Shown here one piece after another: positions 41,705-58,426 of a stretch of 64,000 nt of DNA. The stretch comes from an uncultured Gammaproteobacteria bacterium (lineage in GTDB: Bacteria; Patescibacteriota; Microgenomatia; UBA8517), in NCBI GenBank assembly GCA_964429215.1, contig CAYSAY010000004.1, positions 8,421 through 72,420 of the forward strand. Reading direction: 5' to 3'. The notes beneath the pieces are model-generated. The model was not told the origin of the DNA. It did no database searches and saw only the letters and a list, made by a program, of their open reading frames with translations. Within the stretch, counting starts at the first letter, position 1. Each line of letters opens with the position of its first letter. Made by a program: the position numbers and the translations under genes.

Positions 41705-41741
41705 ATTTTCAGTTTAGTCAAAAAGAGGTAGAATATCAAAT

Positions 41742-44219
41742 ATGATATACAACCACAAAACAGTTGAAAAGAAGTGGCAAGAAAAGTGGGAGAAGGATGG
41801 ACTCTATACCCCAGATATAAAAAATACCAAGTCAAAAGACACTTTCTACAACTTATGGATGTTTCCATATCCTTCTGCAGAAGGTCTACATGCAGGTCAC
41901 GCCTTTGCCTCAACAGGAAGTGATATCTATGGAAGATTTATGAGAATGAATGGTAAAACAGTCTTTCAGCCTATTGGCTATGATTCATTTGGGATACACA
42001 GCGAAAACTATGCAATTAAAATTGGAGAAAACCCCCACGAAGTAGTGAAAAGAACAACTGCAAACTATGAATTACAAATGAGAGCCTTGGGTCATGGCTA
42101 TGACTGGACTAGAACAGTGACCACTTCTGATAGTAATTATTATAGATGGACACAGTGGCTGTTTGTCGAAATGTATAAGGCTGGTCTTGCCTACAGGAAA
42201 AATGCAGAAGTAAACTTTTGCCCTAGTTGTAAAACAGTTCTTGCTGATGAGCAAGTAATGACCCCAAAGCAAGCAGGTAAAGAGCCAAAAGACAAAGACG
42301 GAAATATTGTTCCAGATAGTGATGAGCTAAAAGTCTGCGAGAGATGTGGAACAATTGCAGAAAAAAGAAACTTGGATCAATGGTTTTTCAAAATTACAGA
42401 TTATGCAGACAGGTTGTTATCAGGACTTAATGAAATTGATTGGAGTCCAAGAGTTGCCATGGCGCAAAAAGAGTGGATAGGTAAAAAAGAAGGTGTAAAA
42501 ATAAATCATAAGGTAAAAGATTTGGACATAACGTTAACTGCATTCAGTGCATATCCGGCATGGCTTTTTGCAGACACCTTTTTGGTAGTTGCCCCAGAAC
42601 ATCCAATTGTTTCTGAGTTGGTAAGAGGTACTAAGTTTCAGATTGATGTAGAAAAATTTGTTGAAAATTTCAAAAAAAACAAAAACAGTAGGGGTAGTAA
42701 ATTGGACGATAAAGAAGGAATTTTTACAGGTAGGTTTGTAATAGATCCATTTAATGGAATAGAAATGCCAGTATATCTTGCAAACTTTGCATTAATGGGT
42801 TTTGGAACGGGTATTATAAGATGTTCTGCACATGACCCTAGAGATTATGAATTTGCAAAGAAATACGATATTGAGTTAAAAGAAATAGTTGAAAGAACTG
42901 ATCCAGAATTACCTGTTAACGCACACACTAATGAGGGAAACCTAAAAGATTCAGGTCTTTTTACGAATAAATCAATAACTCCAAAGTTAATTTCTGAAAT
43001 GCTTGATTGGATTGAGAATCAAAAAATAGGTGAAAGAAATACAAATTATCATCTTCGTGATTGGTTAGTCAGTCGTCAAAGATACTGGGGTCCACCAATC
43101 CCAATGATTAATTGTTCTAAATGTGGCTGGCAAGTAGAAGAAAATTTACCAGTTTTATTACCTGATATAAAAGACTATCAACCTGAAGGAAATGGTAGAG
43201 GTCCTTTGGCGAATCATCCAGAGTTTTTTGAGGTCAAATGTCCAAGTTGTGGAGGTGATGCAAAAAGGGAAACTGATGTAATGGATACATTTGTTGATTC
43301 AAGCTGGTATTTCTTGCGTTATCCATCGGTAGATTTGGACAATAACGCCTTCGATAAAGAAATTAGCAAAAATTGGCTTCCAGTTGATTTATATTTTGGA
43401 GGCGCAGAACATTCCGTACTTCATTTAATGTATGCAAGGTTTGTAAATATGGTTATGAAGGATAGGGGATATCTGGATCATGATGAACCATTTCCAAAGT
43501 TTTTTGCTCATGGTCTGATGATTAAAGATGGAGCAAAAATGAGTAAAAGTAGAGGTAATGTAATAAATCCCGACCAGTATGTAGAAAAGTATGGGTCTGA
43601 TACATTAAGACTATATGTGATGTTCATGGGACCTATGGATGGATATCCAGATTTTAGGGATTCAGGCATAGAAGGAATGAGCAAATTTATTAAAAGAATA
43701 TTGAATTTGTTTGATAAGCAAAGCTTGCCACTTCGTGGTAAAAAACCTACCAAAGATGATTTGCTAAGTAAGATGCATTTGACTATCAAAGCAGTAACAG
43801 ATGATATCAAGCAATTTAAGTACAATACATCGATTGCTAAAATCATGGAATTTGTTAATGAGCTTACTAAGTACAAAGTACTAAGTACTAAGTACTTGGC
43901 TGTGCTTACACAACTATTAGCCCCATTTGCACCTCATATTGCAGAAGAGCTTTGGAGTGAAGTATTAAAGCAAAAGGGATCAGTCCACCTTTCGTCTTGG
44001 CCAGAATATGATGAAAAATACTTAAAGAGCGAAACGATAACAATAGCAATTCAAGTAAATGGAAAGTTAAGATCAACAGTTACAGTTAGTAACAACGCTG
44101 ACAAAGAAAGTATTATTAGCCTTGCAAAATCTGATGAAAAAATGAAAACATGGATTGAAGGTAATGAAATTAAAAAAGAAATCTTCGTTGCTGGAAAATT
44201 AGTTAACTTTGTAATATAA
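41742..44219 (+). CDS. leuS: leucyl-tRNA synthetase
   Basis: HAGHAFASTGSDIYGRF (HIGH-type), KMSKSRGN, editing-domain and anticodon-binding regions (LAPFAPHIAEELW). Confidence 0.95.
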   Translation: MIYNHKTVEKKWQEKWEKDGLYTPDIKNTKSKDTFYNLWMFPYPSAEGLHAGHAFASTGSDIYGRFMRMNGKTVFQPIGYDSFGIHSENYAIKIGENPHEVVKRTTANYELQMRALGHGYDWTRTVTTSDSNYYRWTQWLFVEMYKAGLAYRKNAEVNFCPSCKTVLADEQVMTPKQAGKEPKDKDGNIVPDSDELKVCERCGTIAEKRNLDQWFFKITDYADRLLSGLNEIDWSPRVAMAQKEWIGKKEGVKINHKVKDLDITLTAFSAYPAWLFADTFLVVAPEHPIVSELVRGTKFQIDVEKFVENFKKNKNSRGSKLDDKEGIFTGRFVIDPFNGIEMPVYLANFALMGFGTGIIRCSAHDPRDYEFAKKYDIELKEIVERTDPELPVNAHTNEGNLKDSGLFTNKSITPKLISEMLDWIENQKIGERNTNYHLRDWLVSRQRYWGPPIPMINCSKCGWQVEENLPVLLPDIKDYQPEGNGRGPLANHPEFFEVKCPSCGGDAKRETDVMDTFVDSSWYFLRYPSVDLDNNAFDKEISKNWLPVDLYFGGAEHSVLHLMYARFVNMVMKDRGYLDHDEPFPKFFAHGLMIKDGAKMSKSRGNVINPDQYVEKYGSDTLRLYVMFMGPMDGYPDFRDSGIEGMSKFIKRILNLFDKQSLPLRGKKPTKDDLLSKMHLTIKAVTDDIKQFKYNTSIAKIMEFVNELTKYKVLSTKYLAVLTQLLAPFAPHIAEELWSEVLKQKGSVHLSSWPEYDEKYLKSETITIAIQVNGKLRSTVTVSNNADKESIISLAKSDEKMKTWIEGNEIKKEIFVAGKLVNFVI

Positions 44220-47933: not shown

Positions 47934-48562
47934 ATAAACAAAATTACGACTGAAGCGATCAAAAATAGTAGAGTTACATAAACAAATGGTTTTGAAATTT
48001 TTGTTAAATCAAATTTTTGTTCATTAACTAAGGGTAAACTTGTTTTGGTTGGCTTCCCCAAAATTTCTCCAAAAGTATTTCCTGAAAAACTTTGCGAAGT
48101 AGGATTTTGTGTTGTTGTGGCTGTTGATGTAGGTTCGGCTGTTGGAACCAAAGTTCCCAAAGCCGTAGCAGTCGGTTTTGCTGTCGCCGTTGCCTGCCCC
48201 GACTCAGTCGGGGTTGCAGTAGGAGTTTGGGTTGGAGCAACGCTAGTACAAAAAGGTGCAACTTTTGTATTGTTAAATTTTGATAAAACACTACCCACAA
48301 AATGCAAGTTAGGTATAATACTATCAACATTCATTCCGCAATCGTGACCTCTATGTGGTCTATTTCTAGTTCCCATTTCGTAGACATCATTTTGATAAAC
48401 ATAAAGACATCTTGGGTCTGCATCAATTTGCGATTGGTTCATACAAGGTTCATCTGCTGCTTTGGTAAAGATAAGAAGTGCAATAGATGTATTTGCAATA
48501 AAAAACAAAATAATTAAATGTATAAGATATTTTTTAAGTAGCTTTTTAAATGTTTTTTTCAT
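47930..48562 (-). CDS. membrane-anchored protein with Thr/Pro/Ala-rich low-complexity region
   Basis: N- and C-terminal hydrophobic helices, TQTPTATPTESGQATATAKPTATALG. Confidence 0.4.
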   Translation of the reverse strand: MKKTFKKLLKKYLIHLIILFFIANTSIALLIFTKAADEPCMNQSQIDADPRCLYVYQNDVYEMGTRNRPHRGHDCGMNVDSIIPNLHFVGSVLSKFNNTKVAPFCTSVAPTQTPTATPTESGQATATAKPTATALGTLVPTAEPTSTATTTQNPTSQSFSGNTFGEILGKPTKTSLPLVNEQKFDLTKISKPFVYVTLLFLIASVVILFI

Positions 48563-49818
48563 ATATAGTTAAATTCTTCAGTGTGGATTCGACCATTTTT
48601 AATACCAAGTTGTAAAAGTTGGGAACGAAGTGTGTTCATGAAGTTGATTGGTCCACAAATAAAAAATTCTGCTGAATCAAAGTTTTTTGAATTTTCCTTG
48701 ATGTAACTAGCCGTGATGTGTCCCATGTCTTTACTAAAAAACGGCTTTAAGTTTACATTTTTAACAGCAATTCCCAATTTTTCATTCTCATCTTTTAGAC
48801 AATTATATAAATCAATAGAAAAGTCATTTTCACTGGTTATTGCTTTTGACATTCCCACAAATGGTGTGATCCCAATTCCACCTGCAATCCAAACTTGATT
48901 TGGGTTAGGAAAGTAGTGGTATGAAAATCTGCCATACGCGCCTTCAATAAGTGCTGTTGATCCAACTTCTATGTCAGTTAATTTTTTTGTGTAATCTCCT
49001 TCAATTTTTGAAATAATTACCATTTTATTTGTGTCGCTACTAGCAATAGAAAAAGGATGGATTTCGTCTGTCACTTTTTCTGATTTAAAACTAATGAATA
49101 CAAATTGACCAGGGTAATACTCAATCTTTTTATTTACATCTGTGGGTAAAAGTGTGATTTCTACTACTTTTTCGTTTAATTTTCTGACAGTTGAAACGGT
49201 ATAGTTGTATCTTTTAACAAACAACTTAAAAAAGACTGTGCGGTATAAATAAGCAGATATTCCAGAAATGACGACAAACAACATATAAAACCAAAGAGGT
49301 TTAAAACTTGAGATTGTGGATGGTATTAAAAAGCTATGAAAAACTGCAATTAAAAAGACTAACCCTGTAAATTTATGTGACATTTTCCACAAATGGTAGG
49401 GAATTTTGGCAAATAAAGTTAAGATTAATAGTGCAGATATTGAGTAAAGTGAAATTAAGCCTAAATCTACAAAAAAATCTTTGCCTGGAATTATTAAATC
49501 AAGTGCGTAAGTAAAGCTAACTGTAATTCTTGATAAAAAGATTGAAATTGGGTGGATTATCATCAATAAAAATGCATATTTACCAATTTTATGATGTTCT
49601 TTGTAAACAATATTTAGGCCGTTGAAATAATTTTCAATAATTGCAAGCCTTGCTGACAAAAATAAGTTAATAGAATACATTGTAAGTCCCACAAGTCCTG
49701 TAATTTGGCCAATGGAAAGTAAGACTGAATAGAAATCGCTAAAATAGACAGAAATTGGTAAATGCGCAAAAATCCAAAGTAACACTGGAATAATAGAAAT
49801 TAAGGCAACAATGACCAT
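48559..49818 (-). CDS. ferric-reductase / NADPH-oxidase-like flavocytochrome (6-TM heme domain plus FAD plus NAD(P)H domains)
   Basis: Paired His in TM helices (HHKIGKYAFLLMIIHP, HLWKMSHKF...AVFH), FAD motif HPFSIASS, NAD motif IAGGIGITPF, CGP motif FFICGPINF. Confidence 0.75.
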   Translation of the reverse strand: MVIVALISIIPVLLWIFAHLPISVYFSDFYSVLLSIGQITGLVGLTMYSINLFLSARLAIIENYFNGLNIVYKEHHKIGKYAFLLMIIHPISIFLSRITVSFTYALDLIIPGKDFFVDLGLISLYSISALLILTLFAKIPYHLWKMSHKFTGLVFLIAVFHSFLIPSTISSFKPLWFYMLFVVISGISAYLYRTVFFKLFVKRYNYTVSTVRKLNEKVVEITLLPTDVNKKIEYYPGQFVFISFKSEKVTDEIHPFSIASSDTNKMVIISKIEGDYTKKLTDIEVGSTALIEGAYGRFSYHYFPNPNQVWIAGGIGITPFVGMSKAITSENDFSIDLYNCLKDENEKLGIAVKNVNLKPFFSKDMGHITASYIKENSKNFDSAEFFICGPINFMNTLRSQLLQLGIKNGRIHTEEFNYI

Positions 49819-49870
49819 ATATTAATAATAGCGTATTTTGATACATAATTTATATTAACTTTCCATAAAT

Positions 49871-49899
49871 ATTGATTAGTACAAAAATTTAATATAAAA
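49871..49899 (+). promoter_or_regulatory. promoter candidate: TTGATT (49871..49876), 17-bp spacer, TAAAAT (49894..49899)
   Basis: Hexamers read from sequence; positioned to drive the T-box leader. Confidence 0.4.
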
Positions 49900-49905
49900 T
49901 GTAAA

Positions 49906-50034
49906 AAGATAAGCGTTTGCATTAGGCTTAGGAACCTAAGAGCTTAGAGGTAATAAAGAGTTAAATGTAAGGGTGGTAACGTCGAAAGACCCCTTTGAGT
50001 ATCAATTAATTTTGATATCCAAAGGGGTTTTTTG
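49906..50034 (+). promoter_or_regulatory. T-box riboswitch leader (antiterminator/terminator) upstream of a small ORF and argS
   Basis: T-box sequence AAGGGUGGUAACGUCG (49969..49984). A1 helix AGGG(49970-73)/CCCU(49991-94) encloses the 7-nt bulge UGGUAAC. A2 hairpin is GUC-GAAA-GAC (49981..49990). Competing terminator follows at 49988..50034. Confidence 0.7.
49988..50034 (+). terminator. rho-independent terminator (T-box expression platform)
   Basis: GACCCCUUUG / loop / CAAAGGGGU stem followed by UUUUUUGUUUUU. Confidence 0.75.
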
Positions 50035-50050
50035 TTTTTGATAAAAATAT

Positions 50051-50278
50051 ATGAATATTAATGACGCAATAAAATTACTTAATAAATTAGCATTACCTAA
50101 TGATGCCAGTGCTGTCATGGAAGACCATCAGGGTGATTTTGTCTTGATTAACACAAAAGGTGAACTTGCCGATGATCAAGCCCAGAAAGAATTTGATGCG
50201 CTTGTTTTCAAAGCTGAACATCCACTTGCACCAAAAGGTTGGAGAAAATGGATATCAAAGAGAGGCAAAGAATTTTAA
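50051..50278 (+). CDS. small hypothetical protein (75 aa)
   Basis: ORF only; lies between the T-box terminator and argS. Confidence 0.3.
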   Translation: MNINDAIKLLNKLALPNDASAVMEDHQGDFVLINTKGELADDQAQKEFDALVFKAEHPLAPKGWRKWISKRGKEF

Positions 50279-50303
50279 TAATATAGTACAATAAATAAAT
50301 AAC

Positions 50304-51938
50304 ATGAATATTAAAAATAAAATTGCAAAAGTCTTAGAAGATGTCACCAGAATTAAAAATCCGAGTGTAGAGTTCACATCTGATGAAAAATTTGGCGACT
50401 ATTCATCCAATGTTGCCTTGAAAAATAAGGATCTGAACATTGATTCGATTGTGCAAAAAATCAATGAATTCAGTAATGATTTTACTGCAGAAAAATTGGG
50501 GAGATTTGTTAACTTTAGAGTTAAAAATGATGTACTAGTTGATAATTTGATGCAGATTGATAGTCAAAAAGAGAACTATGGAAAATCGGACTTTTTGAAA
50601 GGTAAAAAAATAATGTTTGAGTTTGCTCATCCAAATACTCACAAGGCATTCCATATTGGTCATTTGAGAAACATTACAACGGGAGAAGCATTATCAAGAA
50701 TGTATGAAGCAACTGGAACTAAGGTCGTTAGAGCAAATTATCAGGGTGACGTTGGACTGCATATTGCTAAAGCACTATATGGAATAGAAATAAAAGGTTT
50801 TGATGATCCAAAAGATATTAAAAAGAGAGCTGAATATTTAGGAAAAGTTTACGCAATTGGTGCAACAAAGTTTGAAGAGAGTGACATTGATAAAAATAAA
50901 GTCGCAGAAATTAATAAAAAAATATATGACAAGAGTGATGAAAAGATTACTAATTTATATAAAACAACAAGGCAATGGAGTCTAGACTATTTTGCGACAA
51001 TTTATGAAAGGGTCTATGTAAAGTTTGATAGGTTGTATTTTGAGAGTGAAACAGCTGAAAGTGGTAAGAAAATAGCATTAGAAGCACTTAAAAAAGGAAT
51101 TTTAGTAGAAAGTGATGGCGCTATTATTTTTGAAGGGACTAAATATGGGTTACACGACAGAGTTTTTATATCGAGTAAAGGTGTTCCTACATACGAGGCC
51201 AAAGATTTTGGGCTAGTTAAATTGCAACTTAAAGAATATAGCCCTGATAAAATAATACATGTTCTAGGACCCGAACAGCTTGGGTACACTTCAGTTATTT
51301 TTAAGGCACAGGAACTAGCAATTCCGGAAACAATTGGTAAGCAGTTACATCTTCCTTACGGTTGGGTAAAGCTTAAAGAGGGAAAAATGAGTTCGAGAAC
51401 GGGTAATGTTATTCTTGGTGAGTCCATACTTGATCAGGCAAAAGAAAATATATTAAAAAGTTACAAAATAGATGACGTAACTGCCGAAAAAATTGCAGTT
51501 GGTGCGGTGAAGTACTCGTTTTTAAAAAGCGGTTTAGGTCAAGAAATTGCATTTGATTTAAAAGAATCAATATCTTTAGAGGGTAATAGCGGACCATATT
51601 TGCAATACACAATTGCGCGTTGTAATAGTGTTGTTGCTCGTGGTAATGTTGTTAATCTAAACCTTGAACCTTTAACCCTAAACCCTGTGGAGTTATCAGT
51701 CTTGCGTAAATTATCCCTATTTGGTGAGATAATATCGACTGCAACAAAAAATTACTCACCAAACATTCTTTGCAATTATTTATATGAATTAGCCTCAAAA
51801 TATAATACTTTTTACAATGCTGAAAAGATTATTGGTGGAGAAAATGAGGAGTTTAAACTACTATTGACCAAATCAACTGCTCAAGTACTTAAAAATGGAC
51901 TTAATCTATTGGGAATTCAGTCTCCTGAGAAGATGTGA
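50304..51938 (+). CDS. argS: arginyl-tRNA synthetase
   Basis: HPNTHKAFHIGHLRN (HIGH), class I fold, C-terminal anticodon-binding domain, length 544 aa. Confidence 0.95.
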   Translation: MNIKNKIAKVLEDVTRIKNPSVEFTSDEKFGDYSSNVALKNKDLNIDSIVQKINEFSNDFTAEKLGRFVNFRVKNDVLVDNLMQIDSQKENYGKSDFLKGKKIMFEFAHPNTHKAFHIGHLRNITTGEALSRMYEATGTKVVRANYQGDVGLHIAKALYGIEIKGFDDPKDIKKRAEYLGKVYAIGATKFEESDIDKNKVAEINKKIYDKSDEKITNLYKTTRQWSLDYFATIYERVYVKFDRLYFESETAESGKKIALEALKKGILVESDGAIIFEGTKYGLHDRVFISSKGVPTYEAKDFGLVKLQLKEYSPDKIIHVLGPEQLGYTSVIFKAQELAIPETIGKQLHLPYGWVKLKEGKMSSRTGNVILGESILDQAKENILKSYKIDDVTAEKIAVGAVKYSFLKSGLGQEIAFDLKESISLEGNSGPYLQYTIARCNSVVARGNVVNLNLEPLTLNPVELSVLRKLSLFGEIISTATKNYSPNILCNYLYELASKYNTFYNAEKIIGGENEEFKLLLTKSTAQVLKNGLNLLGIQSPEKM

Positions 51939-58344: not shown

Positions 58345-58354
58345 CTTTTTTTTG

Positions 58355-58426
58355 TGTCCTCGTTCAGAATCGGACTGAAATCTAGGGATTAGGAATCCCT
58401 CGTTCTATCCATTGAACTACGAGGAC
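58355..58426 (-). tRNA. tRNA-Arg (anticodon CCU), with atypical T-loop
   Basis: Reverse complement folds as acceptor GTCCTCG/CGAGGAC, U8 A9, D-arm GTTC-AATGGATA-GAAC, anticodon stem AGGGA/TCCCT with loop TTCCTAA, 4-nt variable loop, T-arm TTCAG-TCCGATT-CTGAA (C at position 55), discriminator A. The opposite strand fails at the T-arm/acceptor junction. Confidence 0.55.

Follow-up and report, generated by a model that had tools for sequence, protein, structure and literature searches.

A T-box-derived leader of minimal form upstream of argS in a Woesebacteria-like bacterium, with tRNA-Arg as its probable ligand

Canonical transcriptional T-boxes (RF00230; e.g. Bacillus subtilis tyrS) combine a Stem I, which has a GA/K-turn motif at its base and carries a codon followed by a purine, with an antiterminator made of helix A1, a 7-nt UGGN bulge and helix A2. 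The purine strings RRRxG and AA stand before A1, an intrinsic terminator competes with the antiterminator, and an aminoacyl-tRNA synthetase gene lies downstream. Canonical elements also possess a distal Stem I platform on the tRNA elbow (AG bulge and distal loop, with interdigitated T-loops), a codon located in an internal loop, a Stem II S-turn, a IIA/B pseudoknot (F-box), Stem III and a G.U closing pair in A2, and their sensing part measures ~180-250 nt. In the T-boxes studied so far a truncated Stem I by itself hardly binds tRNA, and Stem II together with the IIA/B pseudoknot is needed for tRNA binding where Stem I is short (PMC7583486). The discriminator includes, as an integral component that cannot be dispensed with, Stem III together with its flanks (5'-RRRxG-Stem III-AA-3'), and the 3'-aminoacyl group is sensed sterically above all by a conserved G.U wobble at the foot of A2 (PMC7583486).

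Two described groups depart from this scheme. The glyQS T-boxes dispense with Stem II, for which the strong pairing between the GGC codon and the GCC anticodon has been argued to be the cause, and keep a long Stem I with its elbow platform as well as Stem III (PMC7583486). The ileS T-boxes of Actinobacteria (Sherwood et al. 2015; class II of the TBDB) have a naturally truncated Stem I with no elbow platform, rely on Stem II and the IIA/B pseudoknot, and keep Stem III (PMC7583486). These elements are described as translational, with sequestration of the Shine-Dalgarno sequence (PMC7583486, PMC7778990), and according to the TBDB paper the search for class II T-boxes covered Actinobacteria as well as class I matches with a truncated Stem I (PMC7778990). 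No paper in the literature we searched connects T-boxes to Patescibacteria or to the candidate phyla radiation (CPR), and within that literature T-boxes of the CPR appear to be undescribed.

The window analysed here, i.e. the whole stretch of 64,000 nucleotides, has a G+C content of ~33% and encodes an ArgRS whose closest named relatives belong to Candidatus Woesebacteria / Microgenomates (candidate phyla radiation, Patescibacteria). The argS operon is preceded by a leader which, from 5' to 3', consists of P1, an internal loop, a 5-bp helix, an 8-nt terminal loop, a 23-nt linker, an antiterminator and a terminator. That this is a T-box-type argS leader, as an earlier sequence-only reading had proposed, follows from its orthologues, from covariation and from the Arg codon in its loop. 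The element is T-box-derived by homology, yet it fails several defining structural features as well as the family model. Judged from its sequence, it is with a probability of roughly 65% a minimal transcriptional T-box that would sense tRNA-Arg and control the operon formed by a 75-aa ORF (ORF75) and argS. The features are as follows.

48559-49818, strand opposite to the leader: upstream gene, ferric-reductase-like
49872-49900, + strand: promoter-like site TTGATT-17-TAAAAT (consensus scan, 9/12 matches)
49911-49945, + strand: Stem I module (RNAalifold, covariation, RF00230 base consensus)
49911-14 paired with 49942-45: P1, AAGC with GCUU
49915-21 opposite 49940-41: K-turn-like internal loop, GUUUGCA opposite GA
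49922-26 paired with 49935-39: 5-bp helix of Stem I, UUAGG with CCUAA
49927-49934, + strand: terminal specifier loop CUUAGGAA (cUU-AGG-Aa)
49930-49932: specifier, Arg codon AGG, with U 49929 before it and the purine A 49933 after it
49946-49968, + strand: A-rich single-stranded linker AGAGGUAAUAAAGAGUUAAAUGU, 23 nt
49969-49995, + strand: antiterminator, i.e. the T-box sequence (sequence; A2 covariation)
49969-73 paired with 49991-95: helix A1, including AGGG (49970-49973) and CCCU (49991-49994)
49974-49980: 7-nt bulge UGGUAAC, with UGGU (49974-77) as the proposed partner of the tRNA 3'-ACCA end
49981-49990: helix A2, GUC-GAAA-GAC
49988-50040, + strand: intrinsic terminator (hairpin 49988-50029, 10 + 7 bp, loop UUAAUU)
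50051-50278, + strand: ORF75, 75 aa, first gene of the putatively regulated operon
50304-51938, + strand: argS, arginyl-tRNA synthetase, 544 aa (Pfam tRNA-synt_1d, DALR_1, Arg_tRNA_synt_N)
58354-58426, - strand: tRNA-Arg(CCU), candidate ligand (ARAGORN, Rfam), ~8 kb from the leader

Of the features of canonical T-boxes named first above, the codon and its purine, the purine strings before A1, A1, the UGGN bulge, A2, the competing terminator and the synthetase gene downstream recur in the window, and the base of Stem I has a sequence resembling the GA/K-turn motif. The features named second do not, since the codon stands in a terminal instead of an internal loop, the elbow platform, Stem II, the pseudoknot and Stem III are all missing, and the sensing part is only ~85 nt long. 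With the glyQS type the leader has in common a flexible single-stranded linker from the K-turn-like base of Stem I to the discriminator, the lack of Stem II, a G+C-rich codon-anticodon pairing and control by transcription termination, but it lacks the long Stem I with elbow platform and the Stem III of that type. The truncated Stem I with no elbow platform is shared with the actinobacterial ileS elements, from which the leader differs in having a terminator and U-run as well as in lacking the Stem II, pseudoknot and Stem III on which those elements draw.

The antiterminator contains the combination of A1, 7-nt UGGN bulge and A2 that marks membership of the T-box class, and AGGG, the UGGUAAC bulge, GUC-GAAA-GAC and CCCU are located exactly where the sequence-only reading had placed them. 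Its description of the antiterminator as "textbook" holds for the outline and fails in the details: AAC takes the place of the conserved ACC at the 3' end of the bulge (AAC, ACC or ACA among the leaders compared), A2 is closed by G49981-C49990 and not by G.U, and Stem III, Stem II and the IIA/B pseudoknot are absent. A G-C closing pair was found in 10/10 argS leaders. Similarly, the match to the T-box consensus is present but needs one mismatch and one insertion. The designated antiterminator structure has a predicted energy of -5.6 kcal/mol.

The terminator is formed by the arms GACCCCUUUG...CAAAGGGGU (49988-50029) followed by the U-run UUUUUUGUUUUU, and its hairpin alone reaches -29 kcal/mol. 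The 3' strands of A2 and A1 (49988-49995) serve a second time in its 5' arm, and the two structures are consequently mutually exclusive; the fold of 49988-50029 and the covariation described below bear out the overlapping terminator with U-tract that had been predicted. The leader region as a whole folds with -43 kcal/mol (z = -5.4 versus shuffles). A simple terminator scan missed the hairpin because its search pattern excludes such a long interrupted stem. The upstream gene lies on the other strand, and the terminator is therefore inside a 5' leader and not at the end of an upstream + strand gene. All orthologues have an extended G+C-rich hairpin as their expression platform, with a U-run behind it that lies 15-20 nt upstream of the start of the ORF. 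A translational platform of the class II, actinobacterial kind, hiding a Shine-Dalgarno sequence, was considered and rejected, since a hairpin and U-run terminator was found in its stead. We also rejected a helix between 49915-49923 and 49963-49972 that appears in the single-sequence MFE structure, as it is not conserved in the orthologues.

P1 and the Stem I hairpin were predicted unaided by RNAalifold. The base of Stem I resembles the RF00230 consensus agCgaUGA...GAGcu (agCgaUGAaagGG...CCcugGAGcu) and is reminiscent of the T-box GA/K-turn motif. In three of the related leaders (L001, L167 and L170) the arrangement AAGC-GUUU-GA-stem opposite stem-GA-GCUU fits the K-turn consensus; the window has GCA where these have GA, i.e. 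an extra C within the G-A step, and a bulge of 4 nt. The base of Stem I may fold as a K-turn. An alternative register of the helix, CUUAG-GAAC-CUAAG, was discarded because UUAGG/CCUAA agrees better with homology, with covariation and with the module's MFE.

The promoter TTGATT-17-TAAAAT proposed earlier was recovered by our consensus scan, and transcription would start at ~49906-49908, a few nucleotides 5' of the leader. A -10-like box is located 5-17 nt before AAGCG/CAGCG in every orthologous leader, which leaves no room for a longer Stem I in the RNA. The suspicion that Stem I would be very short thus proved correct, with a 5-bp helix, an 8-nt loop and the promoter directly upstream. As for the specifier, which was to be sought in Stem I, the candidates put forward earlier were a CGU near 49914 and AGA/AGG at 49946-49950. 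They fall within P1 and the linker, and none of them is preserved as an Arg codon in L001/L170; the CGU, although present, occupies 49914-49916 instead of 49913-49915. The actual specifier is the AGG of the terminal loop.

Within the linker (49946-49968) we found no RNAalifold helix, no covarying helix and no CCGUUA F-box. GGUAA (49949-53) takes the position of AGUA in the relatives and appears as a GUAA/AGUA remnant. AAAGAG (49955-60) and AAA (49963-65), both conserved, are the counterparts of the purine strings RRRxG and AA that flank Stem III. Stem III itself is replaced by UU (49961-62), such that aaAGuG-[Stem III]-AAaUaGGGUGG in RF00230 becomes AAAGAG-UU-AAAUGUAAGGGUGG.

For comparison, 173 loci around ArgRS genes were collected. 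Seven distinct orthologous leaders, the window included, precede argS operons on Woesebacteria-like contigs: those of the window, L081, L082 (= L083), L001 (= L085, L086, L166), L167, L170 and L162 (= L163). More distant T-box-like leaders of argS are present in L065, L031 (Collierbacteria) and L168, the last of which keeps the 3' half and has a 5' half unlike the Stem I module of the others. The distribution among close relatives is patchy, and argS has no such leader in L084, L164, L165, L169, L171, L172 and L173. A covariance model (R2) built from L001, L167, L170 and L162 only, i.e. excluding the window, L081 and L082, gives 49909-49997 in the window a score of 68.7 bits (E = 6e-15), and no other R2 match in the 64 kb is better than E = 2.8. 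Neither R2 nor a further model, R1, revealed a second copy of the leader in the window. When viral contigs were scanned for AAANNTAAGGGTGGTA, at least 120 chance matches were obtained, and the sole R1 match there (L222) was a plain hairpin. The leader of a second synthetase gene in the window was also looked for: the spacer upstream of leuS (41742-44219) is just 37 nt long and holds no leader.

About 7-10 distinct leader sequences underlie the comparison. Since MAFFT misaligned L162 and L065, pairs were counted in an alignment of segments from 10 leaders, assembled by hand and padded with N (A4), which leans towards the structure; in it 97.4% of the cells of the antiterminator state pair, with double changes in 8 pairs. 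These values were reached by 0/500 shuffles, and slid registers gave 20-66%. In Stem I, 5/5 pairs covary and pairing is 100% in 9 sequences (UUAGG/CCUAA, UUGGG/CCCAA, UUGGA/UCCAA, AAGGG/CCCUU and GCAGA/UCUGU). In A2, 3 pairs covary and pairing is 100% in 10 sequences (GUC/GAC, GUUCU/AGAAC, GUCC/GGAC, GCCU/AGGC and GUCA/UGAC). Neither UGGU nor helix A1 varies among the 10 sequences, save for one A-C mismatch in the A1 of L031, and this near-invariance neither supports nor opposes the pairing of A1. The terminator state is 94.4% paired in A4, with 3 covarying pairs in the terminator helix, and the base of that helix covaries across the orthologues (93% paired). The ArgRS proteins of the lineages that carry the leader are only ~65-76% identical.

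Two lines of evidence point to an arginine tRNA as the ligand. First, the loop triplet is always an Arg codon, with a U on its 5' side and a purine on its 3' side, in all compared argS leaders that carry the Stem I module. It is AGG in L081 and L082 as in the window, CGA in L001, and CGC in L167, L170, L162 (loop GUCGCGU), L065 and L031 (both with loop GUCGCGA); codon and 3' purine read CGA-A, CGC-A or CGC-G in these other leaders. AGG and CGC differ at 2/3 bases and both encode Arg. In the ileS-type T-boxes of Patescibacteria (L129, L145, L153 and L155) the equivalent terminal loop carries AUC; ileS lies downstream in L129, L145 and L153, and the contig of L155 stops before the next gene. A conserved complement to the loop triplet is found nowhere else in the leaders, so that its partner presumably acts in trans. 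Secondly, the window itself encodes a tRNA-Arg(CCU) whose anticodon complements AGG and whose discriminator base A73 complements the U of UGGU, in this one genome. Its CCA end is not encoded, as read directly from the 3' end of the gene. AGG makes up 18% of the Arg codons in the long ORFs of the window.

An RF00230 scan had been suggested as a check on the T-box assignment, and taken alone its outcome would count against a T-box: the model has no match on the whole window at the gathering score (93 bits), nor in 49780-50320 at E<=10. At gathering scores Rfam 15 reports two tRNAs only in the window, and weak matches to Srn266, to plastid 3'UTR models and to MIR6027 were dismissed, as they merely reflect the terminator hairpin. 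On the orthologues L162, L167, L168 and L170 RF00230 likewise finds nothing at E<=1. Other Patescibacterial leaders, however, give significant matches below the gathering score, with E = 5e-11 to 0.03 under permissive settings: L155 (E = 4.6e-11), L129 (E = 4e-8), L026 (E = 1.3e-7), L145 (E = 1.5e-4), L153 (E = 3.5e-4) and L006 (E = 0.026). Those of the ileS type span E = 5e-11 to 4e-4, whereas the window type scores nothing; the fuller argS leaders stand at E = 0.67 (L031) and no score (L065). In the alignments of L155, L129 and L026, 71-80 Stem I positions of the model are reduced to 6-19 nt, and L129 and L065 are devoid of Stem III and keep Stem II and/or the CCGUUA pseudoknot sequence.

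The Patescibacterial ileS T-boxes (L129, L145, L153, and also L155) and the fuller argS T-boxes (L065, L031) resemble the window element in their short Stem I, in the codon of the terminal loop, in the GAGC motif after Stem I and in the terminator. They differ in having kept the Stem II region (UUGGGAAGAA...AGUAGAACCC) and/or the CCGUUA F-box, which the window type lacks. These intermediate forms constitute a graded series of reduced T-boxes in Patescibacteria, with the Woesebacterial argS type at its most reduced end. The window element descends from fuller T-boxes still found in other Patescibacteria, and along the way it has lost Stem II with the IIA/B pseudoknot, Stem III and the distal platform of Stem I.

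Such extensive loss could also mean that the leader is the relic of a decaying T-box which no longer senses tRNA and now serves as an attenuator, either constitutive or leaky, or is heading for loss. The element is without the Stem II and pseudoknot needed with a short Stem I, and without Stem III and the G.U wobble; the leader has been lost entirely in several close relatives, and in L168 only the 3' half is recognizable beside a divergent 5' half. However, an unselected relic would not be expected to keep its Arg codon, its pairing and its UGGU. The specifier has stayed an Arg codon through the changes between AGG, CGA and CGC, the pairing of Stem I, A2 and the terminator has been preserved by compensatory changes across lineages as diverged as those compared here, and UGGU and the purine flanks are invariant. 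Hence we regard decay as an unlikely explanation, though one to be taken seriously.

A second alternative, which we hold to be less probable still, is that a protein holds the tRNA, or senses its charging, on the minimal RNA. The candidates are ORF75, a K-turn-binding protein of the L7Ae type and the tRNA-binding domains of these operons. Several observations speak for such a helper. The gene next to the leader is a small conserved ORF in the window, L001/L166 and L168; the controlled operon of L166 and L170 includes a free-standing tRNA_bind (PF01588) ORF; the ArgRS of L162, L167 and L168 bears a fused B3_4 domain; and K-turn-binding proteins may assist suboptimal K-turns (PMC7583486). Nevertheless, this is co-occurrence only, the operon partners vary, and L162 and L167 have no small ORF. 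Moreover, tRNA-binding domains adjacent or fused to a synthetase are more simply understood as aids to aminoacylation, and ORF75 has no recognizable fold or family.

The 75-aa ORF that the sequence-only reading had placed between the terminator and argS is present, and it proved to be conserved, a point which that reading had suggested checking. ORF75 is 42-67% identical to P0122 and to the ORFs that occupy the corresponding position in L001/L166 and L168, and the copy in L081 is frameshifted. A word-index protein search returned one homologue only, besides ORF75 itself; no Pfam or NCBIfam family was matched, and a single-sequence AlphaFold model is of low confidence (pLDDT 62.6). By its sequence conservation ORF75 is a genuine gene. 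Leader-peptide attenuation was rejected, since ORF75 has just 2 Arg among its 75 aa and shows conservation at the protein level, and is thus not a leader peptide. Between ORF75 and argS, a -10-like TACAAT at 50287-50292 could drive argS independently of the T-box.

Finally, a chance T-box-like sequence beside an ordinary terminator and promoter region can be excluded, for although the 8-mer GGGTGGTA occurs three times in the window and is not significant alone, and RF00230 is silent at the site, the whole 125-nt leader is conserved with covariation at the same place before argS operons elsewhere, it is matched by an independent covariance model at the E-value given above, and the upstream gene runs on the opposite strand.

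We thus return to a minimal transcriptional T-box as the preferred reading. Transcription would begin a few nucleotides before 49911, and the nascent RNA would fold into the K-turn-like base and the 5-bp Stem I, with the 8-nt loop presenting U-AGG-A. Uncharged tRNA-Arg(CCU) could then pair through its anticodon with AGG and through its 3'-ACCA with the UGGU of the 7-nt bulge. The weak antiterminator (A1 and A2, ~-6 kcal/mol), held by the tRNA, would block the -29 kcal/mol terminator and allow the polymerase to read through, while with charged tRNA, or with none, the terminator would form. From this arrangement we infer that the leader binds tRNA and discriminates between its charged and uncharged forms. 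Whether these two Watson-Crick contacts, i.e. between loop codon and anticodon and between bulge and NCCA end, suffice is a narrower claim. We would give only an even chance to a naturally minimal T-box (~85 nt of sensing RNA, present in Woesebacteria-like CPR bacteria) that reads tRNA-Arg through them alone, with no part played by an elbow platform, a Stem II S-turn or pseudoknot, Stem III or a G.U wobble. By analogy with glyQS, the G+C-rich duplexes of Arg codons may explain why an argS leader could lose Stem II and the ileS leaders, with AUC, could not.

In conclusion, our results raise the question of a minimal RNA able to read both the identity and the charging of a tRNA. If the preferred reading is true, modules deemed indispensable from Firmicute and Actinobacterial models would not be universal, or they would be supplied in trans by CPR cells. 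A working element would be the smallest natural T-box so far, an example of RNA reduction in the CPR and a compact natural scaffold for engineered tRNA-responsive switches; a non-working one would give a picture of riboswitch decay. Moreover, these Patescibacterial T-boxes escape the Rfam T-box model when its gathering score is applied, and censuses of riboswitches in the CPR therefore probably undercount them.

T-box leaders adjoining argS on its 3' side are found in Patescibacteria at four of the loci collected around ArgRS genes:

L129, 4223-4354: T-box leader on the 3' side of argS, then ileS
L145, 4273-4421: T-box leader on the 3' side of argS, then ileS
L153, 4307-4492: T-box leader on the 3' side of argS, then ileS
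L155, 2399-2534: T-box leader on the 3' side of argS; the contig ends before any next gene

In all of these leaders Stem I is ultrashort, its terminal loop contains AUC, and a terminator closes the leader; that of L129 is also devoid of Stem III. Their matches to the Rfam T-box model RF00230 are significant (E = 5e-11 to 4e-4), with scores far under the gathering score of 93 bits. RF00230 also gave sub-threshold matches at two other loci:

L006, 660-900: T-box leader 5' of a 229-aa protein
L026, 624-835: T-box leader 5' of a 250-aa protein

No Pfam family was found for either downstream protein. The bulge of the L026 leader reads UGGC, implying a tRNA partner with G73.

Two loci have T-box leaders upstream of argS itself:

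L168, 1-190: leader of the argS operon
L031, 2570-2977: spacing from T-box terminator to argS start codon, ∼400 nt (Collierbacteria)

The L168 leader retains the T-box, antiterminator and terminator. Its 5' half is different, with no recognisable counterpart of the Stem I module; the contig begins at position 1, and upstream sequence is thus absent. A terminator-like CCGCGGUAGAUGCGG-U6 lies just 5' of this leader, a copy that may have been rearranged or be degenerating.

The argS operons of some relatives also encode tRNA-related domains, as N-terminal B3_4 domains (PF03483) of ArgRS proteins of 812-814 aa or as free-standing tRNA_bind (PF01588) ORFs within operons predicted to be under T-box control:

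L162/L163, 2501-4939: ArgRS with B3_4
L167, 1019-3463: ArgRS with B3_4
L168, 850-3294: ArgRS with B3_4
L166, 1611-1901: tRNA_bind ORF
L170, 357-704: tRNA_bind ORF

The locus L081, whose argS leader is orthologous to that of the window, has two further features:

L081, ∼2522-2570: GGGAGTGTTACTTTAAGTACGAATCTTAAAGCTTCCCTCCCTCGTGATAG, conserved element of ∼45 nt folding as a GGGAG...CUCCC hairpin
L081, 2750-2995: frameshifted orthologue of the 75-aa ORF (Logan assembly)

The hairpin element, shared with L082/L083, L084, L164, L166 and L167, immediately precedes argS or the promoter of its leader, and some of the relatives bearing it are without a T-box. In the window, no copy was noticed around argS. 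In the orthologue the frame breaks mid-gene: 33 aa at the N-terminus are read in one frame and AEHPLAPKGWRKW...GKEF at the C-terminus in another. Either the assembly has an indel here or the gene is a pseudogene.

Two further sites lie within the window:

41705-44219: leuS (825 aa) with its upstream spacer
50287-50292: -10-like TACAAT, part of TAGTACAAT, 11 nt 5' of the argS start codon

Besides argS, leuS is the other aminoacyl-tRNA synthetase gene among the large ORFs scanned; its upstream spacer measures only 37 nt, and no T-box-like leader was found 5' of it. The TACAAT is conserved between the window and L081, and the promoter scan returned no -35 match to it. It could be an internal promoter, allowing argS to be expressed independently of the leader.
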